From NCBI GenBank assembly GCA_017472285.1, contig JAFUQQ010000058.1, positions 6,637-70,636 on the forward strand: a DNA stretch of 64,000 nt, read 5' to 3'. The notes under the pieces are model-generated. The model was not told where the DNA came from, did no database searches, and saw nothing but the letters and a program-made list of their open reading frames with translations. This document shows, in pieces, positions 7,787 to 45,093 of the stretch; position 1 is the first letter of the stretch, and each line of letters starts with the position of its first letter. This DNA is from Clostridia bacterium. GTDB taxonomy: Bacteria; Bacillota; Clostridia; Oscillospirales; CAG-272. The translations under genes were made by a program, and so were the position numbers.

Positions 7787-8023
7787 CTATATAAAAATTT
7801 CATCATAGCTGACATCTAAAATCGTTTTGATTAAAATGATCTCGTCGGGATATAAATGTCTTTGTCCGACCTCAATTTTAGCAACTGCACTGCGCGTAAT
7901 ATCACAGCCTCCAAGCTGCATTTTGGCGGCAAGAATTTCCTGCGTCATACCTCGTTTTTCGCGCAGAAGACGAATATTGTTTCCGATTCTTTTTTCAATC
8001 ACTGGATTCATATTTTCACTCAT
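7787..8023 (-). CDS. XRE family HTH transcriptional regulator
   Basis: 78 aa. IGNNIRLLREKRGMTQEILAAKMQL...VAKIEVGQR is a classic Cro/C1 HTH. Confidence 0.85.
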   Translation of the reverse strand: MSENMNPVIEKRIGNNIRLLREKRGMTQEILAAKMQLGGCDITRSAVAKIEVGQRHLYPDEIILIKTILDVSYDEIFI

Positions 8024-8025
8024 TT

Positions 8026-8104
8026 TTGCACTTATTTGAGAACAAAACTCTTGACATTTATTATATCGTTATGTTACAATAGTTTTGCACCTATATAAGT
8101 GCAA
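8026..8104 (+). promoter_or_regulatory. promoter (TTGACA 8051-8056, TGtTACAAT 8072-8080) flanked by TTGCAC-type operator-like repeats (8026-8035; palindrome 8085-8104)
   Basis: TTGCACCTATATAAGTGCAA is a 20-bp palindrome with 1 mismatch. A half-site copy TTGCACTTAT lies just upstream of the XRE gene start. Confidence 0.5.
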
Positions 8105-8126
8105 ATATAATTCGACGGAGGAAAAT

Positions 8127-9286
8127 ATGGGAAAAGAATTGACGAAAAGCCAATATCATGCCGATTTTATTCATGATATTATTAAAAAAGAATATCAAGC
8201 GGATGCATTGTATACTCTTGCCAAGGAATGTCAGCATAAAGCGGAGAACATTCGGCGGGAAGGGGAAAATTGTCGGAAACAGGCGGAAGCAAAGGTTCTT
8301 GCAGCAAAACAGCAAATAAATATGAGAAAAATGATTTGAATGCTATCACAAAATACAAAAAAGATGACGGTACATATCCGAAAGAATATGTAAGCATTTA
8401 TGAAACAAAATATCGAAGAATTGCACAACCATTTTTTTCTTTCGGAAGACTAACAGTGATTACATTATTAGCTTTTTTGTTCTCATTACCTTTGACAGTG
8501 TGGATGCTGTATTTTACAATGCAGAAGAATTTAACAGGGGAAGCATTCGTTTTTTTATTTATTGTAGGATTAGTTGGATTTACTGCTCTTTTAACTTTGA
8601 TAATCAATTCTTTCTATATTTTGATTGTTTCCGGTGAGGAAGAAAAATATATTGTTGAAAAGGAAAAAATAGATAAATTTGCAGGTTATCCTTGGAAAGA
8701 AAAATTGTGCATTGAGAATTTGGAATATGCAAAGCAGAAATATGAAGTTTATCAAGAGGAATAGGAAGTTGCTCTTGATGTATATCGGAAATCCGAGGAA
8801 AGAGCCATTATCATAGAAAAACGCGCAAAAAAACTTAAAAATTCGGCGGAACGCTTGAAAAGCGACCAACAAAAAATGTTTGACATGAACGTAATTCCCC
8901 CCGATTACAGAGATTTGAGATGTCTATTTGAATTGTACCGTATTTTTTATAATAATCTGGCAGATACCATGCGCGAAGCAATTGCCATTTATGAAGAACG
9001 TGTATTCCGAGGTATTGTTGTCAAAGGGATATATCAATTGAATAATAAATTCGGTTTGATTTCCGAGTATATTGTCGATGTGAAAGATGAACTTCACAGA
9101 ATCAGCAGAGATACGGATTTTATGAGCGGAGAAATTCAGCGCATCCGAGAAAATCAAGACAACCAGAATGATAAACAAGATCAAATGATCGAAGAAATCC
9201 GTGCCACACGCTATGCCAATGAAGCCGTAAAAGAAAGCCAAGAGCGTTGCGAATGGTATATGAATTATAATTTTTGGAATAAATAA
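8127..9286 (+). pseudogene. disrupted coiled-coil membrane protein gene (one frameshift near 8300-8340 and one in-frame TAG at 8762-8764)
   Basis: ORFs 8127-8339, 8270-8764 and 8855-9286 read as one protein. The last two are in the same frame, and the 90 nt between them are open except for the single TAG. The third piece has no SD. Confidence 0.45.
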
Positions 9287-9290
9287 TAAA

Positions 9291-9326
9291 AAATCCACCG
9301 ATTCGGGTACCTGCGGTAGAGCAGGT
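9291..9326. repeat. left copy of an imperfect inverted repeat bounding the 9.3-17.3 kb block
   Basis: AAATCCACCGA..TACCTGCG..AGCAGGT. The same three blocks (11, 8, 7 nt), in the same order, occur in reverse complement at 17226-17263. Confidence 0.55.
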
Positions 9327-9393
9327 TCACCCGAAGGGCGGCTAAATTCGAAATCAAACGGTGTAACCCAATAAAGTGTTATGCCGTTTTTTG

Positions 9394-9597
9394 TTATTCT
9401 TTGGAAATGAATTCGTGAACAAGTTCAGGTGTGAGTTCCTTGATCTCCGTAATCTTTTTGACCTTGGAAATAAACTTTTCAAGCTCATCCGTTTTCTGCT
9501 TCGTGATGCTGTTGCTCTTGTCTTGCAGTTCATCGTTACGGGAAAGTCTGCAATAGAGATCTTTGACTTTCGTCGAGAATATCTGTGAGCGTTTCAT
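9394..9597 (-). pseudogene. remnant of a large serine recombinase (DUF4368-like C-terminal segment only)
   Basis: The 67-aa ORF ends ...KFISKVKKITEIKELTPELVHEFISKE, matching the conserved C-terminal DUF4368 pattern of Clostridial serine recombinases. There is a stop just upstream and no catalytic domain. Confidence 0.55.
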
Positions 9598-9671
9598 ATT
9601 CGCTTGGCGTTACCTCAATTTTTATCTTTCTTTGAGGCAGACGAATCTCTGAACGGTTTTTGTCCTATTGT

Positions 9672-11450
9672 TTATGTTATATATCCTTCGCTTTGCTTTC
9701 GATACATTTCTGCGTAAACACCATTTTTCTGCATTAACGCTTTATGGTTTCCGTATTCAGCAATCGTTCCATCAACAAAAACAGCAATATGATCTGCAAT
9801 CGTAGATACCGCAAGCCTATGACTCACAAAAATGGTTGTTTTATTTCCTGACATTTGAAAAAAGTTTTGATAAATTTCGGCTTCTGCCTTTGCGTCAAGA
9901 CTCGCCGTTGGCTCATCAAGAATGAGAATGGGTGCGTTTTTGTAAATTGCTCTTGCGATTGCGATTTTTTGTGATTCGCCACCCGATGGTTCGATTCCAT
10001 CTTTTGAAAAGTTCTTTGTGATATAAGTATTCACACCATCGGAGGATGTATCGAACAAAGGTTTCAATCCAATGTCATGAGCGATATTTTCGATCTTTTT
10101 ATGGTCTGTATGATCGTCAAGCGCAATTGCCTCAGCGAATGAAAAGGCAAAATTTTGGAAATCCTGAAAAACAGTTGCTATCAGTTTATAATACTTTTCA
10201 TTGGACATTTGCCAAATATCTTCACCGCCAATCGTGATTTTTCCCGTTGTCGGTTTATAAAATTTACACAAAAGTTTGATAAGCGTCGTTTTTCCGGCAC
10301 CATTTTGACCAACGATCACAAGTTTTTCCCTTGAACCAATCCGAAGATTGATATGATTCAACGTATTTACCTTTGCATTGGGATAAGCAAATGATACATC
10401 TTCAAAACAGATTGTGAGATTATTTTCGTTCTCAAAATCGGCATCAACACAACAATGCTCGCAAGGTGTTATTGTGTTCAAGGATAGTAACTTCTGAAAA
10501 TCTCCAAGATTCAACACTTGCTGATGATACAGTTCCACCTCACCCGCAAGAATTGTGAACATAGAAACAAGTGTTGTCGATGCGGAAAAATACATCGTAA
10601 AATCTGCAATCGAGATTTCGCCGGTCAAGTATCTTTGCGTAAGCAATCCCAAAACAAGCAAGGTTTGGAGAGCAAGTGCAATAGCCATCAAAATGTCAAA
10701 TAAAGCAGAATATCGGAAATCCTTATATTGAAGCGTTAACATCTTCTCTCGGTATTGATTGTTTTTGGCAATAAACCAATTTTCAAGATTGTTGACACGG
10801 ATTTCCTTCTGACCTCCCGCATCGAAATAAGCAACACGGGATAAGTAGTTTCCCTCACGGTCATTTTGAGCATAAAGCAGTCTGACTTTTTTATTGCGGG
10901 AATATCGCAGGAACGAAAATAGCACTTTTAGGGCACTGACAAAAAGAATTGCGGCGAAAATGGTTCCATCCATATTTGCAATAACTGCCGCAAATCCCAC
11001 GATCGTGATGATTCGGGAAAGGATTCGTTGAATGATAGAAAATGTTTTTGTCAATTCGGTTGCCTTGCCGGCAAGCAAAATGATTTCTCGATGTGCAGGA
11101 GATTCCGCATCAAGATAAGAAAGCTTCATGGATATCTTTCCTATTTCGAATCGTATTTTTCTTGCGAAGCGATCCTCGTAAACGGCTTGTTTTACCTTCA
11201 AAAGCTGAAAAACTAAATGAAAAAACAGGAGCAGTATGGCATAAATAAGGATTGCTGTTGCTGTTTTTTCATAAGAGCTTTCCTCGGTTAAGCATTCGAT
11301 GATGTGTTTCGGCATATATACGCCGAGAGCTTGAAAGATTGGATTCAACAAAATATTCGGTATAACAACCCAAAAATAAAGTGGTTCATACCTATAAATA
11401 AGGCTTGCAATCTGATATGCCGATGTTAATTTTTGAATAAATTTTTTCAT
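9672..11450 (-). CDS. ABC transporter ATP-binding/permease protein (type I exporter half-transporter)
   Basis: 592 aa. N-terminal 6-TM domain, Walker A GQNGAGKTT, signature SGGESQKIAIARA, Walker B ILILDEPT. Confidence 0.9.
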   Translation of the reverse strand: MKKFIQKLTSAYQIASLIYRYEPLYFWVVIPNILLNPIFQALGVYMPKHIIECLTEESSYEKTATAILIYAILLLFFHLVFQLLKVKQAVYEDRFARKIRFEIGKISMKLSYLDAESPAHREIILLAGKATELTKTFSIIQRILSRIITIVGFAAVIANMDGTIFAAILFVSALKVLFSFLRYSRNKKVRLLYAQNDREGNYLSRVAYFDAGGQKEIRVNNLENWFIAKNNQYREKMLTLQYKDFRYSALFDILMAIALALQTLLVLGLLTQRYLTGEISIADFTMYFSASTTLVSMFTILAGEVELYHQQVLNLGDFQKLLSLNTITPCEHCCVDADFENENNLTICFEDVSFAYPNAKVNTLNHINLRIGSREKLVIVGQNGAGKTTLIKLLCKFYKPTTGKITIGGEDIWQMSNEKYYKLIATVFQDFQNFAFSFAEAIALDDHTDHKKIENIAHDIGLKPLFDTSSDGVNTYITKNFSKDGIEPSGGESQKIAIARAIYKNAPILILDEPTASLDAKAEAEIYQNFFQMSGNKTTIFVSHRLAVSTIADHIAVFVDGTIAEYGNHKALMQKNGVYAEMYRKQSEGYIT

Positions 11451-11456
11451 GCTTTT

Positions 11457-13328
11457 TTATTTACTAAGAAATTGCTTCAAATCAATCTCGCCGTTTAGCT
11501 GTGCTTGGGAATGCAAAAAGCTTGGATAGGCGAGCAATTTCCTGCGGGCGTTGCCCGCTTCCTTTCGATAATATTTTGCTTGCGATTCGTAAAGCTCGGC
11601 ATAAACACCGTTCTTTTGCAGTAATTCATTATGGGTTCCCGATTCACAAATCACACCGTCTCGGAGAACAAAAATTCGATCACAAAAACGGGTAGAAGAA
11701 AGCCTGTGCGAAATAAAAAATGTCGTTTTCCCCTCTGAGATATCGGAAAAATTTTTGAAAAGCTCATATTCCGCAATCGGATCCAGTGCAGAGGTAGGCT
11801 CGTCCAAAATCAAAAACGAAGCATTTTTGTAAAGTGCACGGGCAAGTGCAAGCTTTTGACCTTCGCCGCCTGAGAAATCAATTCCGTTTTCATCCAATAT
11901 TTTGGAAATGGAAGTAGATACGCCACATTCCAAAGAGGATAGTTTCTGTTTCAGACCGCTCTTTTCTATGCTTCGTTCCAATTTTTTCTCGTCGAAAGGC
12001 TGATCAAATACAATATTTTCTTTCGCAGAATAAGCAAACAGCATAAAATCTTGCAAAACAATGCCGAGATATTCTGTATATTGCGTAATCGGAATATTGC
12101 GAATATCAATGCCATTCAAAGTGATATATCCCTCTGTTGGTTCATATAAACGGCATAAAAGTTTGACGAGCGTTGTTTTTCCCGATCCATTCAGACCGAC
12201 AATTCCTATCTTTTCACCGTTTCGCACAGTAAAATTCAGATTATGCAAGATCTCACGGGGTGTTTCGGGATAAACAAAGGATACGTTGTGAAACGTAATT
12301 TCGACGCTCCGCATATCCATTTCAACGGGAGGTAGAGAACGGCTTTGCGCGATGGTGCTGTGATTTTTCAAATATGTTCTGTAATCTCTAAAAATATCCG
12401 TATATTTCAAAGTTTTATTGATCTTTGCAATATTGTCGAAAAAATCAAGAAGATTAGATGCCAGAAGCGTGGTAGCAGCGAGCAAAACGGTATATTCCGA
12501 AAGAGTGATGTGTGAAGAGTACATTTCAAAGGAAAAATATAAGTACATCGAAACGGTTTGAATGACCGTCATGACGGCAGAGATCATATTCATTCCCATA
12601 CACTTATCAAAAAAGACTTTCATTTTCTTGATTTGTTCTTTCAATGTTGATTGATATTTTTTCTCTAAAAGATCGGAGGCTCCGCCGATTCGTATCTCTT
12701 TTGCGTATTTTAGATCTGTCATTACTGTATAGAGATACGCAAGCTTTCGGTCATGCTCGGTCATATTGTTTTTGAGTTCAAAGTCTATCGCATGGCGTTT
12801 GAAAGAAATGATAACCGACACTGCCGATGTTGCCGTAATAATCAATAGAAAAATGGGACTCAATACAGAAAAGATATATGCAATCCCTGCAAACTGAACG
12901 AAGTAACGCAGAAATTTGCCGAGATCGGAAAGAAGCCACACCGGCTGTGCAAGCATAGACCGTTGTTTCAGATTTAACACGGTTCGATCTTTTGCAAAAT
13001 GATAATTGATATAAATAGCATCATTCATATAATCGCGCTGTGTCAAATCGGATGCATAACGCACGGTGTTATCGTCCCAAAGTGTCAAAACACTTGACAG
13101 GAGGGAGATACCGAGATTGAAAATCACATAGAACAGAATCACCTTTCCGATTTCCCACGCTGTTTTTCCTGTGGTCACTGCATCAATAACAAGTCCAATT
13201 CCAAACACATTTGTGAGTGGCAACAGCGCACGAAAAATATTCTTCAGACTTGTCGTGAGAAAAAGAAGTCTGCTTTTGCTCCATGCATATGTAAGAAGGT
13301 AACATAAATTTTGAAATTTCTTTTTCAC
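11457..13328 (-). CDS. ABC transporter ATP-binding/permease protein (partner half-transporter)
   Basis: 623 aa. Walker A GLNGSGKTT, signature SGGEGQKLALARA, Walker B LILDEPT. Lies 6 nt upstream of the partner gene. Confidence 0.9.
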   Translation of the reverse strand: MKKKFQNLCYLLTYAWSKSRLLFLTTSLKNIFRALLPLTNVFGIGLVIDAVTTGKTAWEIGKVILFYVIFNLGISLLSSVLTLWDDNTVRYASDLTQRDYMNDAIYINYHFAKDRTVLNLKQRSMLAQPVWLLSDLGKFLRYFVQFAGIAYIFSVLSPIFLLIITATSAVSVIISFKRHAIDFELKNNMTEHDRKLAYLYTVMTDLKYAKEIRIGGASDLLEKKYQSTLKEQIKKMKVFFDKCMGMNMISAVMTVIQTVSMYLYFSFEMYSSHITLSEYTVLLAATTLLASNLLDFFDNIAKINKTLKYTDIFRDYRTYLKNHSTIAQSRSLPPVEMDMRSVEITFHNVSFVYPETPREILHNLNFTVRNGEKIGIVGLNGSGKTTLVKLLCRLYEPTEGYITLNGIDIRNIPITQYTEYLGIVLQDFMLFAYSAKENIVFDQPFDEKKLERSIEKSGLKQKLSSLECGVSTSISKILDENGIDFSGGEGQKLALARALYKNASFLILDEPTSALDPIAEYELFKNFSDISEGKTTFFISHRLSSTRFCDRIFVLRDGVICESGTHNELLQKNGVYAELYESQAKYYRKEAGNARRKLLAYPSFLHSQAQLNGEIDLKQFLSK

Positions 13329-13378
13329 GGGAAACTTCCTTTCGTGTTTTTGATTTCATTATAAAGCCCCCAAAATGA

Positions 13379-13446
13379 AAAGTCGAGCAAAAAACAGTTG
13401 CATACGGGAGTTATCCTTTCCGCGCAACTATTTTTTGCTCGACTTT
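13379..13446. promoter_or_regulatory. large palindrome (23-bp arms, 22-bp spacer) in the divergent control region, overlapping the -35 of the + strand promoter (TGgTATACT at 13458-13466)
   Basis: AAAGTCGAGCAAAAAACAGTTGC (13379-13401) versus GCAACTATTTTTTGCTCGACTTT (13424-13446), with 1 mismatch. Confidence 0.55.
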
Positions 13447-13486
13447 CCCTGTGAACGATGGTATACTGTAACTAAGAGGTGATAAT

Positions 13487-14185
13487 ATGTTTGATATCAC
13501 AAAATTTGGCAGATATCTTGCCGCGCTTCGCAAAAAAGCAGATATGACACAAATGGAATTGGCTGACAGACTTTGTGTTACCCGTCAAGCGATTTCAAAA
13601 TATGAGCAAGGAGAAAGCTTCCCGAATGTTTCTATCCTGGTTTTGATTGCGGAAGTATTTCATATTACATTGGACGAACTGATCGGTGCCGGAGATCCGA
13701 CAAATGGCGAAGCAAATATTTTAAAAAGTGTCGCTATCGGAGAATCAACGCCCATAGCGGAAAATATTCGTGACGTGGTCAATCTTGCTCCGCTTTTGAA
13801 ACCAAGTGTTCTGGACAAGCTTTCCGAAAATCTTTCCGAAAAAGGAATTGATATTTCCAATATTGTAAAGCTTGCGGAGTTTTTGAATAGTGAAAGCACG
13901 ATCGAGCTTTTAAAAAATGCTGATTTCGATCAAGCAAGCGATGATTTAATTGAACAGTTACTTCCTTGGATGGATATCCCCGCGCAGTTTACCGTATTTC
14001 AAAAGATCTTGGATGGTGAAATGGATATTCGATTATTAAAACCGCTTGTTGCTCGGGGTGCAATTTATGCTTCGCTCATAGAATATGCGGTGGTTGAAGG
14101 TGCTTTGCCGGCATCGGCATTAGAATTGCTACGCAGCGGTCTTGTAGAACGCTCGAATAAAAACAAATTGTCAGCATGGTGGTGA
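13487..14185 (+). CDS. XRE-type HTH domain protein with a roughly 165-aa helical C-terminal domain
   Basis: N-terminus LAALRKKADMTQMELADRLCVTRQAISKYEQGESFP. GAGG upstream. First gene of a three-gene operon. Confidence 0.8.
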   Translation: MFDITKFGRYLAALRKKADMTQMELADRLCVTRQAISKYEQGESFPNVSILVLIAEVFHITLDELIGAGDPTNGEANILKSVAIGESTPIAENIRDVVNLAPLLKPSVLDKLSENLSEKGIDISNIVKLAEFLNSESTIELLKNADFDQASDDLIEQLLPWMDIPAQFTVFQKILDGEMDIRLLKPLVARGAIYASLIEYAVVEGALPASALELLRSGLVERSNKNKLSAWW

Positions 14186-14189
14186 GTTT

Positions 14190-15653
14190 ATGAAGCTTTC
14201 GATTTTAAGCCTTTCTCCCGATTACAAATATCGATACATCGATCATCACGTCATTGAAGATAGTGGTCTTTCTCGTATTCTTGATTCCGAAACATGGTCA
14301 TTCTTAAAAGCCATTTGTCCGACAGACGAAATATTAGCGCGTCAAAGATTATTTCGTGCCTTGATGGAACCCTTGTTCAGAGAAAAATTTTGTTCCTTTC
14401 ATGGTGCTTTAACCGCGTATCTCCGCTATAATAAGCTACTTGCAGAATCGGAAACAGTATGTGAAGGTCTTTTTCTTTTCGCAAAACATTATCAGTGCTT
14501 TCAAAAGTTGATTGAAACCATCAAAGCGTTTCCTACGACAGACAGCATTTTCATCGAAAGACTTTCCGCATATGCAAATCAAAAGCAACAGGCGTTTCAT
14601 GAATATGAACCGTTGTTTTCCGAATATCAAAGCTTATTGGATGCGATTTCTCACTCTAAGATTCAGGTATCATCAGGACGTGCTCATATTTGCAAAATGA
14701 AGACTGCCGCGCCTTCATCTTCTGTCATCGATGAAATCAAAGCTTGTAAACGCTCCTTCGGATATTCCGAAGATATTTCATCCCCGCAAACCATTCGTAT
14801 GTCGCTCCCGATTTCAGAAACCTTGCATTTGCTTTATTCGGACGAATTTTCTCGACTTATTGAACTCAAAGAAACGCTTCACGGTATGCTCGACAACGAT
14901 GTGTTCTCACTCAAAGAGGAATCTGATTTTTATCTTTCTATTTTGGATCTGGTCGAACGTGCAGAAGAATACGGAATCCCTTGTTCCTTTGCTAATATTT
15001 CTGATCGCAAGCAATATATTGCAAACGACATTTACGATGTTTCACTGCTTGCTAAACGCATACCGAATGGGCAATATGTGTCCAATCACGTATCTTTTAC
15101 GGAAAATGAACATTGTTTTTTCTTGCTCGGTGCAAACGGCGGTGGCAAAACGACATATTTGCGTGCGGTTGCATCCAATTTGATTCTTTTTTTGAGTGGT
15201 TGTCCGATCTTCTGTGAATCAGCGGAAATTTTTCCGTTCGATATGATCTTTACGCATTTTCCCGCAGATGAACATTTTGACCATGGCGGAAGATTATTTG
15301 ATGAGGAATGCCGTGTCCGTGCAATGCTTGATAAGGGCACGGAAAACAGCTTTGTTTTTCTGAATGAAACCTTTACGGGAGCAGATGCGAGAAAGGGATT
15401 ATCGCTTTCTCTTTCATTTATGAGAAGTTTTGCAAAGAAAAACACATTTTGCCTTTTTGTTACGCACTTTTATGAGGTCATGGAATTTGAATTTCCTGCT
15501 CTGTGTGCGGCTGTAAAGGCCGATCACGAAAATCAGCGAACATTCAAAATTGAACGCGGTGTCCGCGAGAAGCGTTCCTATGCAGAGGATATTTTGAAAA
15601 AATATGGATTGGATCGGATTTCACTTACTGAGAAAGGAAAAATAAATGATTAG
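14190..15653 (+). CDS. MutS-related ATPase lacking the mismatch-recognition domain (MutS core/domain V only)
   Basis: P-loop GANGGGKTTYLRAV. FLNETFTGADARKG aligns to the MutS Walker B/GT region. No GxFYE domain-I motif and no Smr domain. Confidence 0.7.
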   Translation: MKLSILSLSPDYKYRYIDHHVIEDSGLSRILDSETWSFLKAICPTDEILARQRLFRALMEPLFREKFCSFHGALTAYLRYNKLLAESETVCEGLFLFAKHYQCFQKLIETIKAFPTTDSIFIERLSAYANQKQQAFHEYEPLFSEYQSLLDAISHSKIQVSSGRAHICKMKTAAPSSSVIDEIKACKRSFGYSEDISSPQTIRMSLPISETLHLLYSDEFSRLIELKETLHGMLDNDVFSLKEESDFYLSILDLVERAEEYGIPCSFANISDRKQYIANDIYDVSLLAKRIPNGQYVSNHVSFTENEHCFFLLGANGGGKTTYLRAVASNLILFLSGCPIFCESAEIFPFDMIFTHFPADEHFDHGGRLFDEECRVRAMLDKGTENSFVFLNETFTGADARKGLSLSLSFMRSFAKKNTFCLFVTHFYEVMEFEFPALCAAVKADHENQRTFKIERGVREKRSYAEDILKKYGLDRISLTEKGKIND

Positions 15654-17130
15654 CCTGCTTTATCGAAATTCTACACCGAAAAAAGCGCCTCCGCTTTCAA
15701 CAGAGGCGTTGGATTCCTTGATGATTGATGATGCAATTTCTCTCGTTATCCCCGAAAATGAAAAAAGAAATCATTTTTTGAAAATTCTTTCTGAACCATT
15801 GATCGACACAGAGGATATTCTGTATCGACAGGATATTTTACGGGATTTTTTGAGTCACCGATTTCTTTTAGCAAATTTATCTGACCTTTTCGGCGCATTT
15901 GTATCCGTTGTATTGGAGTATAACAAAACAAGGCAAAACAATAAACTAACATATCGAAAAGCGGTAGGTTCTTTGATTGATTCGGGCGTATCAACATTGC
16001 AATCCATTTCTGTACTGATACGAGAGTTGTTGCTTTTACTTCAAAAGCTTGATGCAAGTATAGAGGGGCTTCCGATTCACTCGACAGGGCTTCTTGCGCT
16101 TCGCAACCGTTTGCACACCATTGCAAAATCTGATGCTTTCCCAAAACTTCTTTCGATTGCCAAAAAATACGACCGATTCACAGCATTTCATTTACATGCA
16201 GATATTGCATTTGACTTGGGTGAAAACGCACAGCTGACAGAAATTCGGTTATTATCGTCAGTAGAAGAAATGCCTGTTTCAAAACCACAAAAAGAGCCCA
16301 AAAAATTGCATCTTTTCAAAAAACGTGATTCTGATGATAGAACGGAAACACAAGAGGCTGTTATTCCGCTGAATTACAACTCCTTTACAACGGAAAAAAT
16401 CGTTGGACAGAGTATTTCAGATATTACAGATGCTATGATTGATGTTGCGAATCAAATCTTATCTGAGTTTATGGGAATCAAAGATGACTTATTGTTTTAT
16501 GAAACTGCTTGCCGTATTTTAGATAAACTGAAAGAATTAGAAACACCTTATGTTTTTCCGTTGTTTGGCAATCAAACAGAAATATTGGATTTGTATGATT
16601 TGTTTTTACTTTTCCGTAGCCCCGATGAAACAAATGTGATTCCAAATGATTTTTCCCTTTTTCAAAATATAGGCGGCATGTTGATACGCGGTGACAACGG
16701 TAGTGGAAAAACCGTTTATCTTCGCTCTGTTACCACTGCCTATCTGTTTGCCCAAGCAGGTTTGCCTGTTCTTGCAAGGAAAGCCTTTATCGTTCCCATC
16801 TGTGCTTTGCACATACTGATGGCATCGTCAGAAAATACATTGGATATCCTCGGTAATGCCGGACGTTTTGAAGAGGAAGTTATTAAAATTTCGGAAATCG
16901 TTAATCACCCCATGAGCGGTGCGATGGTTATGCTCAACGAATTTTTTCAAACCACTTCCTATGCGGAAGGCGCACAAAGCCTCTACCATATCTTGCAATA
17001 CTTATCCGCACAACACATGCGTTGGATATGTGTTACACATCTGCTTGATCTCTTTGATTTGTATCGCAATGAAGTAAACGTAACAAAAATTGAAATTCAA
17101 AATCATAAAGCTAAATTATTTACCTCCTGA
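15646..17130 (+). CDS. MutS-related ATPase paralogue (domain V only), translationally coupled to the previous gene
   Basis: Start overlaps the upstream stop (ATGATTAG). P-loop GDNGSGKTVYLRSV. MLNEFFQTTSYAEG. Confidence 0.7.
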   Translation: MISLLYRNSTPKKAPPLSTEALDSLMIDDAISLVIPENEKRNHFLKILSEPLIDTEDILYRQDILRDFLSHRFLLANLSDLFGAFVSVVLEYNKTRQNNKLTYRKAVGSLIDSGVSTLQSISVLIRELLLLLQKLDASIEGLPIHSTGLLALRNRLHTIAKSDAFPKLLSIAKKYDRFTAFHLHADIAFDLGENAQLTEIRLLSSVEEMPVSKPQKEPKKLHLFKKRDSDDRTETQEAVIPLNYNSFTTEKIVGQSISDITDAMIDVANQILSEFMGIKDDLLFYETACRILDKLKELETPYVFPLFGNQTEILDLYDLFLLFRSPDETNVIPNDFSLFQNIGGMLIRGDNGSGKTVYLRSVTTAYLFAQAGLPVLARKAFIVPICALHILMASSENTLDILGNAGRFEEEVIKISEIVNHPMSGAMVMLNEFFQTTSYAEGAQSLYHILQYLSAQHMRWICVTHLLDLFDLYRNEVNVTKIEIQNHKAKLFTS

Positions 17131-17176
17131 AAAGCAGTAAGGGCGCGATGTTAAACGCGCCCTTACTGCTTTTCAG
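17131..17176 (+). terminator. rho-independent terminator
   Basis: 17-bp perfect stem AAAGCAGTAAGGGCGCG/CGCGCCCTTACTGCTTT followed by TTTCAGGTTTT. Confidence 0.85.
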
Positions 17177-17225
17177 GTTTTATTGAAAAATTATTTCATG
17201 TTCAACGATTTTTAGATAGCAAAAA

Positions 17226-17381: not shown

Positions 17382-19967
17382 TTATTTCAAAAATTTTTCG
17401 AGTAGCTTTCTGTAAGCATCTTTGTAAGGCTGGTAGCGCATGGGGAGATCGAGCCATGTCTTTTTGTCAACGATGCTCTTGGTGTGAGAGAAGGCATCGA
17501 AGCCGGTCTTGCCGTGATAAGCACCCATACCGCTTTCGCCGACACCGCCGAAGCCCATTTCACTGGTCGCGAGATGGATAACGGTATCATTGATACAGCC
17601 GCCACCGTAAGAAACACGCTGTGTGATGAGTTTGATGTGATCTTTATCTTTGGAGAAAAGATAAAGCGCGAGAGGTTTGGGTCTGTCTGCAAGCAAAGGA
17701 ATGATCTCATCAAATTTCTTGAACGTGATGATCGGAAGCACAGGTCCGAAGATTTCTTCCTGCATAACCGCGTCATCCCATGTGACGTTATCCATGATCG
17801 TGGGCGCAATCTTCAAGGATTTTTCATTGACATTACCGCCGAAAATGACTTTATCCTGATCGATCAGAGAGGCGACACGGTCAAAATGCTTTTTGTTGAT
17901 CATTTTACCGTAATGCGGATTGTCTGTGGGGATATAACCGTACTGCGCGCGGATCTGTTTTTGCAGTTCACCGATCAGTTCGTATTTGATGCTTTCTTCA
18001 CAAAGGATGTAATCGGGTGCGACACAAGTCTGACCGCAGTTCAGGAATTTACCGAAAACGATGCGTTTTGCCGCAAGAGAAATCTTGGCGGAGCTATCGA
18101 CGATACAAGGGCTTTTACCGCCAAGCTCAAGGACTGTGGGGGTCAGATGTTCTGCCGTATGGCGAAGGACTTCTTTACCGACGTTGGTACTGCCCGTGAA
18201 GAATACCATATCCCATTTCTTTTCGAGAAGTGCTTTGTTTTCTTCTCTGCCGCCTGTGACGACAGCGACGTATTTGGAGGGGAAGGTTTCCGCAATGATC
18301 TTTGCCACGATCTCACTTGCCGCAGGAGAATATGCACTCGGTTTGACAACGGCGGTATTGCCTGCCGCAATCGCGTTGACGAGCGGTCCCATCGTCAGAA
18401 GGATCGGATAATTCCAAGGGCTCATGATGAGCACATTGCCGTAAGGAATGGGCTGCTTATAGCTCTCGGAATGGAATTGCGCAAGAGGGGTCTTGACTTT
18501 TTTCTTTGCGGAAAATTTCTCGACGTTTTTAATCATATAGCTGATTTCCGAAAGTACCATGCCGATTTCACACATGAAGCTCTCGTAATTACTCTTTCCG
18601 AGGTCAGCCATGAGTGCTTCCGCGATTTCTTCTTCATTATTTTTGATAACGCTATACAACTTTTTGAGCATATAGATACGGAAACCGATGGAGAACGTCG
18701 CGCCGCTACGGAAAAATTCTTTCTGGCTTTTTAAGATCTGATCGATATTTTTTGTCATAGGCTTTCTTCTTTCTGATGTTTTTCTGTAAAATTTTTCAAG
18801 CTCTTTTGCGGTCATGAGCTTCGGAACGGGGTATAAGGGATTGGCTTCTTTTGCCGCGTGTTTTGCCATCCGAGGAATATCTTCTTCTTTGATTTCGGGG
18901 AACGTTTCGGGGATATTCATTCTGCGGTTCAATTCCTTCACGGCGTTTATGAATTTCTTTGCGGCATCGGCATGGCTATCTTCTTTGGTTGCGACACCTG
19001 CCGAGATGGCAAGGGCATGCAGCTTGAAATGTACGGCTTCTCCGTAATCCTCCAGAACGACGGGAAGCAATACGGCATTGGCAAATCCGTGCGGGATATT
19101 ATATTGTCCGCCCAAAGAATGTGCAACGGCATGAACGTAGCCGACGTAAGATTTGGAGAAAGCAATGCCCGCTTTATATGCCGCTGTCAGCATATTTTTT
19201 CTGGCTTTGCGATCGTTACCGTTATTGTATGCTTTTTCAATATTATGGAACACAAGATATACCGCTTCCAAAGCAAGTTTGCGTGTTTCTTTGTTGGTGG
19301 AATTTCCGATGAAGGCTTCAACGGCATGCGTCAATGCATCCATACCCGTCGTTGCGGTGAGGGATGGCGGTAAAGTCAGGGTTACTTCGGGATCAAGCAC
19401 GGCATGAGAAGGGATCATCGTGAAATTATTCATGGTATATTTATGCTTCTTCTCGCTGTCCGTGATGACGGCGGTGACGGTCGTTTCGCTTCCCGTTCCC
19501 GCTGTTGTCGGAATGGCAACGAGTGTCGGGAGTTTGCGCAGAACGCGAAGCAGACCTTTCATCTGTTCCAACGATTTATTCGGATATGCGACTCTCGCGC
19601 CGACGGCTTTCGCGCAATCGATGGAAGATCCGCCGCCGATGGCGATCAGAGTCTCGCATTTTTCTTTTTGGTAAAGCGCGAAGGCATCCTCCGTATTATG
19701 CACGGTCGGATTGGGGCAAACCCCGTCGTAGACGATACAACGGATATCATGCGCGGCAAGACTTTCTTCCAAGGCTTTTGTCGTGCCAAACTCACGGAGC
19801 TTTTTATCGGTTACGAGCAGAACTGCGGAGATCTGAAGCTCTCTGAAAAGCGAACTGATCTTGTCGGTACTTTCCAGAATTTTGGGTTCTCTGTAAGGCA
19901 AAAGTGGGAGCGCAATGTGGAAGGCAGTCTGAAAAACTCTGCAATAAATTTTTTCGATCGGATTCAT
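17382..19967 (-). CDS. fusion protein: N-terminal iron-containing alcohol dehydrogenase + C-terminal NAD(P)-dependent aldehyde dehydrogenase (class-3-like)
   Basis: Fe-ADH motifs GGGSSIDCAKAV and HSLGGQYNIPHGFANA in the N-terminal half. ALDH motifs ELGGKSPCIV and FLNCGQTCVAPDY in the C-terminal half. Start set at MNPIEK, downstream of the predicted promoter. Confidence 0.85.
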   Translation of the reverse strand: MNPIEKIYCRVFQTAFHIALPLLPYREPKILESTDKISSLFRELQISAVLLVTDKKLREFGTTKALEESLAAHDIRCIVYDGVCPNPTVHNTEDAFALYQKEKCETLIAIGGGSSIDCAKAVGARVAYPNKSLEQMKGLLRVLRKLPTLVAIPTTAGTGSETTVTAVITDSEKKHKYTMNNFTMIPSHAVLDPEVTLTLPPSLTATTGMDALTHAVEAFIGNSTNKETRKLALEAVYLVFHNIEKAYNNGNDRKARKNMLTAAYKAGIAFSKSYVGYVHAVAHSLGGQYNIPHGFANAVLLPVVLEDYGEAVHFKLHALAISAGVATKEDSHADAAKKFINAVKELNRRMNIPETFPEIKEEDIPRMAKHAAKEANPLYPVPKLMTAKELEKFYRKTSERRKPMTKNIDQILKSQKEFFRSGATFSIGFRIYMLKKLYSVIKNNEEEIAEALMADLGKSNYESFMCEIGMVLSEISYMIKNVEKFSAKKKVKTPLAQFHSESYKQPIPYGNVLIMSPWNYPILLTMGPLVNAIAAGNTAVVKPSAYSPAASEIVAKIIAETFPSKYVAVVTGGREENKALLEKKWDMVFFTGSTNVGKEVLRHTAEHLTPTVLELGGKSPCIVDSSAKISLAAKRIVFGKFLNCGQTCVAPDYILCEESIKYELIGELQKQIRAQYGYIPTDNPHYGKMINKKHFDRVASLIDQDKVIFGGNVNEKSLKIAPTIMDNVTWDDAVMQEEIFGPVLPIITFKKFDEIIPLLADRPKPLALYLFSKDKDHIKLITQRVSYGGGCINDTVIHLATSEMGFGGVGESGMGAYHGKTGFDAFSHTKSIVDKKTWLDLPMRYQPYKDAYRKLLEKFLK

Positions 19968-20025
19968 GATTTGACCTCTTTTTTTGATCGGAATTTGTCT
20001 TGCGACATGATTCATAATTGCCCAT

Positions 20026-45002: not shown

Positions 45003-45093
45003 GGAGAAGTCGCCTAGTTGGTCGAGGGCGCACGATTGGAAATCGTGTAACCGGTAAAACGGTTCGAGAGTTCGAATCTCTCCTTCTCCGCCA
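45003..45093 (+). tRNA. tRNA-Ser (anticodon GGA), CCA encoded
   Basis: Acceptor GGAGAAG/CTTCTCC, anticodon stem CACGA/TCGTG with loop TTGGAAA, long variable arm, T-loop GAGAG-TTCGAAT-CTCTC, and 3' GCCA. Confidence 0.93.

Follow-up and report, generated by a model that had tools for sequence, protein, structure and literature searches.

A MutS-like ATPase pair with an Asn-Glu Walker B motif in a mobile Clostridial cassette with an XRE regulator and an ABC exporter: a possible stress or toxic-compound resistance system

Adjacent genes for short MutS-like proteins have figured only as unexplained entries in surveys of phylogeny and of riboswitches. The MutS4A/B proteins are specified by adjacent genes in which the stop codon of A overlaps the start codon of B, retain the MutSac domain region only, and are patchily distributed in a manner that suggests horizontal transfer, their function not having been studied (Lin, Nei and Ma, 2007; PMC2190696); Thermoanaerobacter tengcongensis and Thermoplasma volcanium are among the sources of the reference members. 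In a second context, 'DNA repair (mutS)' is merely listed among the genes downstream of the crcB motif (Weinberg et al., 2010; PMC2864571). MutS4A/B has thus been listed since 2007 and MutS-like pairs behind fluoride riboswitches since 2010, with no assigned function found for either, and searches of the literature on MutS-like pairs with ATP-binding cassette (ABC) transporters, XRE regulators or Clostridia, on KamC, and on fluoride together with MutS function returned nothing beyond these two papers. Here we describe a pair of this kind, MutA and MutB, in a stretch of 64,000 nucleotides from an uncultured Clostridia bacterium (contig JAFUQQ010000058.1; hereafter the window, in whose positions all coordinates are given unless they are preceded by L and a number, the label of a compared locus). 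We give about even chances to the reading that the region at ~9.4-17.2 kb is a mobile five-gene cassette for resistance to stress or a toxic compound, in which one XRE-family regulator co-controls an efflux pump and MutA and MutB are an effector. The Clostridial branch of these pairs, its wiring to XRE proteins, to the orphan protein U188, to sigma-like proteins and to ABC exporters, the mirrored-operator cassette and the link to the fluoride-associated pairs all appear to be undescribed in the literature searched.

The genes of the cassette and the elements that bound it are as follows.

9394 to 9597, minus strand: remnant of a large serine recombinase, an N-terminal YCRLSR motif fused to a DUF4368 fragment (Pfam DUF4368, E 2.5e-11).
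9672 to 11450, minus strand: ABC exporter half-transporter 2, a transmembrane domain followed by a nucleotide-binding domain (TMD-NBD), 592 aa (Pfam ABC_tran, E 2e-28; ABC_membrane weak).
11457 to 13328, minus strand: ABC exporter half-transporter 1 (TMD-NBD), 623 aa counted from a GTG start, relatives being annotated at ~597 aa (ABC_tran, E 7e-31).
13487 to 14185, plus strand: XRE-family regulator, 232 aa, with a helix-turn-helix (HTH) at residues 11-65 and a ~165-aa all-alpha C-terminal domain.
14190 to 15653, plus strand: MutS-like ATPase A (MutA), 487 aa; a core/lever region and a small clamp precede the domain V ATPase (Walker B N392-E393), and a pair of helices forms the C-terminus.
15646 to 17130, plus strand: MutS-like ATPase B (MutB), 494 aa, a paralogue of MutA that also has N-E at Walker B.
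17126 to 17177, plus strand: intrinsic terminator of the XRE-MutA-MutB operon, with a perfect 22-bp stem that overlaps the MutB stop codon.

The three open reading frames of the plus-strand operon lie exactly where a preliminary description of this DNA had placed them, with a gap of 4 nt between the XRE gene and mutA and an overlap of 8 nt between the mutA stop codon and the ATG of mutB (ATGATTAG). MutA and MutB are true MutS-family proteins with a core/lever region, a small clamp and an ATPase domain. The Pfam profile MutS_V is matched by MutA at 71.5 bits (E 1e-19) and by MutB at 50.1 bits (E 4e-13), against a gathering cutoff of 30.2, while MutS_III is matched faintly and in MutB alone, and Pfam gave no match in either protein to MutS_I, MutS_II, Smr or a nuclease domain. 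The curated NCBIfam models place neither protein in a named subfamily, the scores being 49-77 bits for MutS (cutoff 480), 45-47 bits for mutS2 (cutoff 400) and 56-59 bits for KamC (NF052383; cutoff 300), the last with E ~1e-15 to 1e-16 over the ATPase domain only. A profile built from 23 MutA homologues matched the ATPase domains of MutS/MSH proteins among PDB sequences at ~1e-20 and aligned with MutS2 over residues 66-479. The AlphaFold2 (AF2) model of MutA, the one subunit modelled (predicted local distance difference test, pLDDT, 86; predicted template modelling score 0.82), presents long lever helices, a small beta hairpin of low confidence at the clamp position, the ATPase domain and the C-terminal helix pair; Foldseek aligned it with MSH2/MutS at E 1e-17 to 1e-18, with a template modelling (TM) score of 0.6 over ~570 alignment columns, and PDB 3k0s, the E. 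coli MutS D693N structure, is among the matches. These profile and structure searches bear out the earlier claim of MutS-family ATPases that lack mismatch-recognition and nuclease domains.

The nucleotide-binding motifs are those that the preliminary description had read from the two translations. The P-loops are GANGGGKT and GDNGSGKT, in the translated stretches GANGGGKTTYLR and GDNGSGKTVYLR, and the Walker B stretches are FLNETF and MLNEFF, so that in both subunits an Asn replaces the canonical Asp of the D-E pair that MutS presents at the position aligned by profile. MutA and MutB share 22% identity, confined to the ATPase domain, and are therefore old paralogues. Both end ~140-170 residues past the P-loop, MutB being ~30 residues shorter there than MutA.

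The pair is not peculiar to this genome. Homologues of MutA fall into 558 clusters at 90% identity, most of them unnamed and a few named 'MutS-related protein' or 'hypothetical protein', and an exhaustive HMMER search returned ~1,500 clusters (50% identity) at E <= 1e-30, with more than 150 having full-length A-type matches. A scan of one genome per species gave 80 loci, all from metagenome-assembled genomes of uncultured gut or rumen Clostridia, Oscillospiraceae and Eubacteriales, and the locus analysis, by calling of open reading frames and BLAST, covered 83 distinct loci. An A-type gene is present in all 83 and a B-type gene lies directly downstream in 77, most commonly with an overlap of 4 or 11 nt. 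The Walker A motif, the N-E Walker B, a Gly-Arg, a following Glu and a His are 94-100% conserved within the A group and within the B group, the Asn-Glu itself being 98-100% conserved across the family in both subunits, which retain the catalytic Glu; the Gly-Arg (Gly-Arg/Lys in the clade as a whole) occupies the position of Ser-Thr in the MutS signature-like motif. On these alignments MutA and MutB are two ancient orthologous groups, in the order A then B, and because their genes lie side by side, mostly with an overlap, at almost every one of the ~80 loci, they almost certainly form an obligate A/B heterodimer, in agreement with the heterodimeric pair first proposed for the window. Such a heterodimer would be asymmetric, with two conserved, non-canonical ATP sites.

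Members of the family occur in part of the Clostridia and on scattered plasmids only. Clustering of the genes around the Clostridial pairs recovered just four recurrent families, namely U188, a sigma-like protein, XRE proteins and ABC half-transporters of ~600 aa, and among these neighbours there was no cluster of fluoride genes and no recurrent defence, aminomutase or translation gene. Two individual neighbourhoods deserve mention. One locus with an ABC-ABC-XRE-MutA-MutB array is adjoined by a divergent operon (L001:1-3150, minus strand) that encodes a different MutS_V protein (520 aa), an HTH protein of 354 aa and unknown proteins of 133 and 163 aa, and that may be another variant system. 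In L004:5746-12552, and also in L005-L007, the pair lies inside a cluster like those for ribosomally synthesized and post-translationally modified peptides, which comprises 78-90-aa open reading frames, an ABC pair and genes for a radical-SAM/SPASM enzyme and a peptidase of the BtrH_N/C39-like type, while a PP-binding protein and a protein of the S24 peptidase type are encoded close by; a link of MutS-like pairs to such peptides was set aside, since it was seen in the L004-L007 family and did not recur in the neighbour clustering.

The gene upstream of the pair varies. In the window it encodes the XRE-family regulator, for which the Cro/C1 HTH and ~165-aa helical domain described earlier are borne out by Pfam HTH_3 (residues 11-65, E 7e-17) and by an all-alpha AF2 model (pLDDT 80.5). 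Residues ~70-232 have no Pfam match, and in a Foldseek search of the PDB only the HTH has relatives (C-proteins, ClgR and P22 c2). The tetratricopeptide peptide-receptor fold of RNPP-type proteins (Rgg/ComR/PlcR) was considered for the C-terminal domain and rejected, the superposition (TM ~0.27, root-mean-square deviation ~16 Å) not being significant. This C-terminal domain defines a family of 240 clusters, and the pair is immediately preceded by an XRE protein with this domain in 9 of the 83 loci, as it is in the close relatives L091-L093; in four of these loci (L020, L030, L041 and L072) the XRE protein is fused to a methyltransferase-like domain. The preliminary description had called the XRE protein a dedicated partner of the ATPases, which does not hold: in all three family members whose surroundings were examined the regulator lies upstream of a class I S-adenosylmethionine (SAM) methyltransferase gene, in a housekeeping setting with no MutS pair nearby, and most Clostridial pairs have some other upstream gene. 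A regulator with the window-type C-terminal domain followed by a class I SAM methyltransferase is, in itself, a widespread two-gene unit of Clostridia (L094:7001-8477, L097:7001-8639, L098:816-2511). In L011:9135-9297, compared with 13445-13486 of the window, ~110 nt are inserted between the promoter and ribosome-binding-site region and the XRE start codon, which fits the N-terminally extended XRE variants of 255-260 aa found in the protein search (P0122-P0124).

The commonest upstream gene, in 45 of the 83 loci (for example L018:1980-2549, L044:9372-9938 and L004:7474-8004), encodes U188, an orphan of ~188 aa that begins with a transmembrane helix and conserves the stretch C-D-F-Y-I-E-T...V-K-L. 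U188 is absent from the window, has no match in Pfam, PADLOC or a PDB profile search, and its 289 homologue clusters are all hypothetical. Often U188 is itself preceded by a protein of ~530-560 aa with sigma-70 regions r2 and r4 and a C-terminal extension of ~350 aa. Such sigma-like proteins stand beside U188-MutA-MutB in L018:318-1979, L031:7660-9249 and L031:9376-11037, and in L031 they also stand beside an ABC pair. Whatever its product, the upstream gene is as a rule coupled in translation to mutA, an ATGA overlap being the commonest arrangement. A docking domain common to the XRE C-terminal domain, U188 and the sigma extension was sought with hmmsearch and hhalign and discarded, as these found none (probability <1%).

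What ties the regulator to the pump as well as to the pair is the region between the two operons, which contains the following elements.

13358 to 13386, minus strand: promoter-like site of the ABC operon, TCGACT, 17 nt, TATAAT (10 of 12 positions in a consensus scan).
13379 to 13446, no strand assigned: palindrome made up of two mirrored operator/-35 modules.
13387 to 13401 and 13424 to 13438: operator cores GCAA-N7-TTGC, each abutting a -35 TCGACT.
13439 to 13467, plus strand: promoter-like site of the XRE-MutA-MutB operon, TCGACT, 17 nt, TG-n-TATACT.

The arms of the palindrome (13379-13401 and 13424-13446) are 23 nt each, 96% complementary and separated by a 22-nt spacer, and as first described the palindrome overlaps the -35 of the operon promoter: the right arm contains the plus-strand TCGACT and the left arm the mirrored -35 of the minus strand. 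Each half is a copy of the operator/-35 part of a promoter module of the XRE family at large, GC(A/T)AC-N6-TTGC abutting a -35 TCGAC(A/T), 17 nt and an extended -10, with the 15-bp operator core of the window in the form GCAAC-N6-TTGC. The operator/-35 module is found upstream of the regulator in L008, L041, L056/L067, L094, L097 and L098 irrespective of the gene that follows the regulator; in L094 and L097 it stands directly upstream as GC(A/T)AC-N6-TTGCTCGAC, and in L098 it precedes an extra 210-aa gene located before the regulator. In the window and three close relatives the module is doubled in mirror orientation, giving the 23-nt arms, and in these four cassettes (window, L011, L091 and L092) both arms are invariant while the spacer and flanks vary, the promoter-like site of the ABC operon also being conserved. 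The motif GCAA-N7-TTGC is too short for significance by itself, with 8 matches in the 64 kb against 1.9 expected by chance, and it is the position of the module and its conservation across distant loci that point to an operator. Since the mirrored operator/-35 module faces both operons, we infer that one XRE regulator controls both the pump and the ATPase pair.

The pump consists of two adjacent TMD-NBD half-transporters and is thus a heterodimeric type IV (ABCB-like) exporter. Pfam domains confirm the two divergent half-transporter genes that had been noted; half-transporter 2 resembles ABCB/MsbA-type exporters, the best solved structures for half-transporter 1 are ABCB1 and YheI-type exporters, and neither half reaches the cutoff of a curated NCBIfam subfamily. 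ABC pairs scoring ~200-275 bits against half-transporter 1 of the window lie within 6 kb of distant MutA/B pairs in 9 of the 36 loci with full flanks, and at least one such gene does so in 13 of the 36; among the XRE-type loci with full flanks the pair is present in 4 of 6 and at least one gene in 6 of 6. The arrangement differs from locus to locus, being ABC-ABC-XRE-A-B on one strand in L001, A-B-ABC-ABC with gaps of 13-78 nt in L089 and L060, and divergent in the window. A functional tie to the exporter, which the preliminary description had offered only as its alternative, becomes the better-supported reading in view of the mirrored operator/promoter module and the recurrence of ABC pairs of the same subfamily near distant homologues.

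That the five genes travel together is indicated by their closest relatives. Homology to L091 (91%), L092 (~90%) and L011 (~85%) is restricted to ~9670-17211 of the window and the flanks differ. The window has AcnX and a fusion of iron-dependent alcohol dehydrogenase and aldehyde dehydrogenase (Fe-ADH/ALDH) there, L091 has a rhamnosidase and tRNA synthetases, and in L092 the neighbours are glycosidases and genes of unknown nature; a block shared between differing flanks implies that the five genes move as a unit. The DUF4368 remnant on the ABC side, which marks the left edge of the block, has a homologous counterpart in the same place in L091 and L092, and L091 has a TnpV gene on the opposite side. 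The accessory, mobile character claimed at the outset therefore stands, the same five genes occurring in different flanks in three relatives, as do the claims that the block is AT-rich (guanine-plus-cytosine content 0.36-0.40 against 0.45-0.49 in the left flank) and scarred by a recombinase (the remnant at 9394-9597). That it is bounded by repeats does not: flanking direct repeats are merely short and at chance level, and no convincing direct repeats or att sites were found to bound the block.

Other features of the surroundings may be recorded here. Left of the recombinase remnant a low-GC stretch carries, within 7787-8108, a small stand-alone XRE HTH gene (78 aa, minus strand) with an imperfect inverted repeat of 32-nt arms immediately upstream (8022-8053/8077-8108) and, beyond it, open reading frames of unknown nature at 8270-8764 and 8855-9286. 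None of this is shared with L091, L092 or L011, save that ~100 nt at 9295-9391, just past the last reading frame, match L092. Right of the block, 17382-20015 (minus strand) encodes the 877-aa fusion with the Fe-alcohol dehydrogenase domain N-terminal and the aldehyde dehydrogenase domain C-terminal, the reverse of the usual AdhE domain order, and a tRNA gene at 45003-45090 is the sole match at the Rfam gathering threshold in the 64-kb window.

The nearest indication of function comes from a sister branch on plasmids, whose members are the closest relatives outside the Clostridia. A tblastn search of plasmids with MutA returned records with two matching places each, and five such pairs from three phyla were examined, in Klebsiella, Alicyclobacillus, Rhodococcus, Burkholderia and Rubrobacter. 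Each consists of two adjacent, overlapping genes for proteins of ~500-540 aa in the order A then B, annotated as split in the second gene (B) of Burkholderia and the first (A) of Rubrobacter. The neighbours are crcB, eno, ppa or a DHHA2 pyrophosphatase gene, DUF190, universal stress protein, cation:proton antiporter and major facilitator superfamily genes, and no protein regulator adjoins these fluoride-linked pairs. In Alicyclobacillus a fluoride riboswitch identified by Rfam immediately precedes the pair, another heads the antiporter-universal stress protein-pair operon of Klebsiella, and a looser match, by regular expression, lies directly upstream of the Burkholderia pair, so that a riboswitch directly precedes the pair in two of the five islands. 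The Burkholderia cenocepacia plasmid (NZ_CP073671.1, L104) is an unusually dense fluoride island, which in 15 kb has at least six fluoride-riboswitch-like sequences; besides the MutS-like pair it encodes a dynamin-family protein and has two genes each for eno, ppa and DUF190.

Every translated plasmid protein has the N-E Walker B, and the G-K-L..E pattern is present in all except the first gene of Burkholderia. The first gene scores better with the Clostridial A profile (195-225 bits) and the second with the B profile (163-182 bits). The overall range of 145-225 bits compares with 114-132 bits for Clostridial A against B and with at most 75 bits for MutS1/MutS2. From these subunit-wise scores it follows that the A/B duplication predates the split of the two branches and that the window pair belongs to the clade, and we regard the Clostridial and fluoride-linked pairs as one clade with subunit-by-subunit orthology, as judged by profile scores. 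It is probable that these plasmid pairs correspond to the published MutS4A/B and to the 'mutS' genes listed behind the crcB motif.

For a stress- or toxin-resistance cassette the following scheme may be envisaged. The XRE protein would bind both operators, a ligand being sensed by its C-terminal domain, and would thereby co-regulate the pump and the ATPase pair. MutA and MutB would associate into a heterodimeric clamp switched by ATP, and its remodelled Mg2+ site would give a long-lived ATP state, as in E. coli MutS D693N. The pump would lower the concentration of the toxic agent, and MutA/B would cope with the damage that the agent causes within the cell, acting on nucleic acid or a nucleoprotein complex; the candidate targets comprise DNA, RNA or ribosomes (compare MutS2) and a protein client (compare KamC). 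An effector would be a more natural role for the pair than a regulator, because the regulators vary (riboswitch, XRE, sigma-like) while the pair is constant, and because the fluoride branch has no protein partner.

Several observations weigh against this scheme. The stress-effector role would be assigned by association with a sister branch that is just 27-30% identical to the window pair, and neither the window nor the 13 Clostridial loci searched with Rfam contain a fluoride riboswitch or crcB, eno or ppa neighbours; a cruder regular expression, calibrated on five true riboswitches, likewise detected no riboswitch upstream of the pair in any of the Clostridial loci to which it was applied. 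Binding of the XRE protein to the predicted operator is suggested solely by conservation and position. The ABC link is not universal, at ~25-36% of the full-flank loci as a raw count, and L008 presents XRE-MutA-MutB without a pump. Finally, MutA and MutB are both acidic on the whole, and the clamp is a small region of low model confidence, so that DNA binding is not assured.

We consider it unlikely that MutA/B are instead a regulatory or signalling ATPase that forms a complex with the product of the upstream gene (XRE here, elsewhere U188 beside an ECF-like sigma factor) and switches transcription of the exporter and of other targets by binding ATP. The usual translational coupling of the upstream gene to mutA, the presence of regulators among the recurrent neighbours (XRE proteins and the ~550-aa sigma-70 r2/r4 proteins) and a Walker B Asn that suits a slow switch rather than a motor would all agree with such a role. 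However, in the fluoride branch the pairs follow a riboswitch or are surrounded by enzyme and transporter genes, no protein regulator being encoded alongside, and can therefore act without a regulator partner; the XRE family works widely without MutA/B; and no homology was detected among U188, the sigma extension and the C-terminal domain of the XRE protein, which offer no common docking domain.

It is also rather unlikely that the pair resembles MutS2 or KamC in working on a client other than DNA, in ribosome or RNA-protein rescue, as an enzyme reactivase or as a chaperone, and is induced together with the pump. The family profile does align over nearly its full length with MutS2, the ribosome-collision sensor (7qv3, 8qpp), and KamC, a reactivase ATPase that is MutS-like and similar in length, is matched with the E-values given above, these two examples showing that evolution has turned ATPases of the MutS type to clients other than DNA. 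Yet the KOW and Smr domains of MutS2 are absent from the pair, the KamC match falls far short of its cutoff and covers the ATPase domain only, and no aminomutase or translation genes recur nearby.

Fluoride toxicity acts through Mg-fluoride complexes in phosphoryl-transfer sites. Because the Asn is fixed at the Mg2+-coordinating Walker B position and one branch is tied to fluoride, one may speculate, as an idea we hold to be rather improbable, that the whole clade is a distinct class of MutS-derived heterodimeric clamps whose Mg2+ site is remodelled, by the Walker B Asn and the Gly-Arg/Lys signature, to keep working when Mg-dependent NTPases are poisoned, and which serve general damage control and not DNA repair or defence. 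The poison would be metal-fluoride complexes in one branch and, in the other, the compound that the linked ABC pump exports, and the damage control might consist, for example, in the release or rescue of stalled nucleoprotein or ribosomal complexes.

The preliminary description had favoured a DNA-surveillance or defence-like role, and the block is indeed accessory, mobile, patchy and of low GC content with recombinase remnants, while MutS-family proteins do bind DNA. We now find it very doubtful that the pair is an anti-phage or anti-plasmid system in which a MutS-like clamp recognizes foreign DNA. The analysis brought no positive evidence of defence. In PADLOC-DB 2.0 the ATPases have only P-loop-level matches (E >1e-3), no MutA/B relative occurs in the 2.9 million viral contigs of IMG/VR, and tblastn in a phage collection gave weak, partial matches, some of them in evidently bacterial contigs. 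The cassette lacks a nuclease or other effector domain, and the recurrent neighbours are regulators and exporters rather than defence genes, the sister pairs in fluoride-resistance islands pointing to a stress response. A conserved D-x3-E-x8-K stretch in U188 loosely recalls PD-(D/E)xK nucleases, but this was seen by eye only and is not relied on, and U188 has no Pfam or PDB match and is absent from the window. A housekeeping modulator of DNA repair or recombination that lies beside an unrelated pump by chance would accord with MutS family membership and with L008-type loci, which stand among housekeeping genes without a pump, but is likewise very doubtful given the lack of a mismatch-binding domain or nuclease, the movement of the cassette together with the pump and a shared control region, the recurrence of the ABC link in different gene orders, and the restriction of the family to part of the Clostridia and scattered plasmids.

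The locus thus draws attention to a large, unannotated radiation of A/B pairs in gut and rumen Clostridia; throughout the clade Asn in place of the Walker B Asp is fixed in both subunits and serves as its hallmark. As the Clostridial pairs are wired to protein regulators and efflux pumps and not to a riboswitch, they provide a second, independent context from which function may be inferred, and the compact five-gene cassette with its clearly predicted operator is directly testable. Were the pair a stress effector, another role would be added to those of the MutS family in mismatch repair, ribosome rescue and enzyme reactivation, and a long-standing orphan of the fluoride regulon would be explained.

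Among known systems, the regulator has its nearest counterparts in XRE autoregulators with divergent operators, such as C-proteins and phage repressors, and in the RNPP receptors, with which it shares a Cro/C1 HTH and a palindromic operator that abuts the -35; its C-terminal helical domain could sense a ligand, but has no significant structural match. The ATPases differ from MutS1, whose domain I with its GxFYE motif and connector domain II are not found in MutA or MutB. With MutS2 (RqcU) they share the lack of domains I and II and a core/lever, clamp and ATPase region that aligns over most of the length, whereas MutS2 is a homodimer with KOW and Smr domains and a D-E Walker B, and the window proteins lack KOW and Smr, are predicted to form a heterodimer and present N-E. 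The same Asp-to-Asn exchange in Walker B characterizes E. coli MutS D693N (PDB 3k0s), where it is an engineered loss of function, while here it is natural, invariant and under selection. The D693N substitution is said, from the work of Lebbink and colleagues in 2010, to weaken Mg2+ coordination, to uncouple the ATP switch from hydrolysis and to stabilize the ATP-bound state. Like MutS4A/B, the window pair is adjacent, has overlapping stop and start codons (here by 8 nt) and conserves only the ATPase-domain region, and it is from this gene organization and not from phylogeny that we would place it in MutS4. It is the 'mutS' pairs of the fluoride riboswitch that the window pair resembles most directly, in A/B order, in the N-E and G-K/R-L/F..E motifs and in domain content, the Clostridial branch being set apart by XRE or U188 upstream, by frequent ABC exporters and by a B subunit that is ~30 C-terminal residues shorter.

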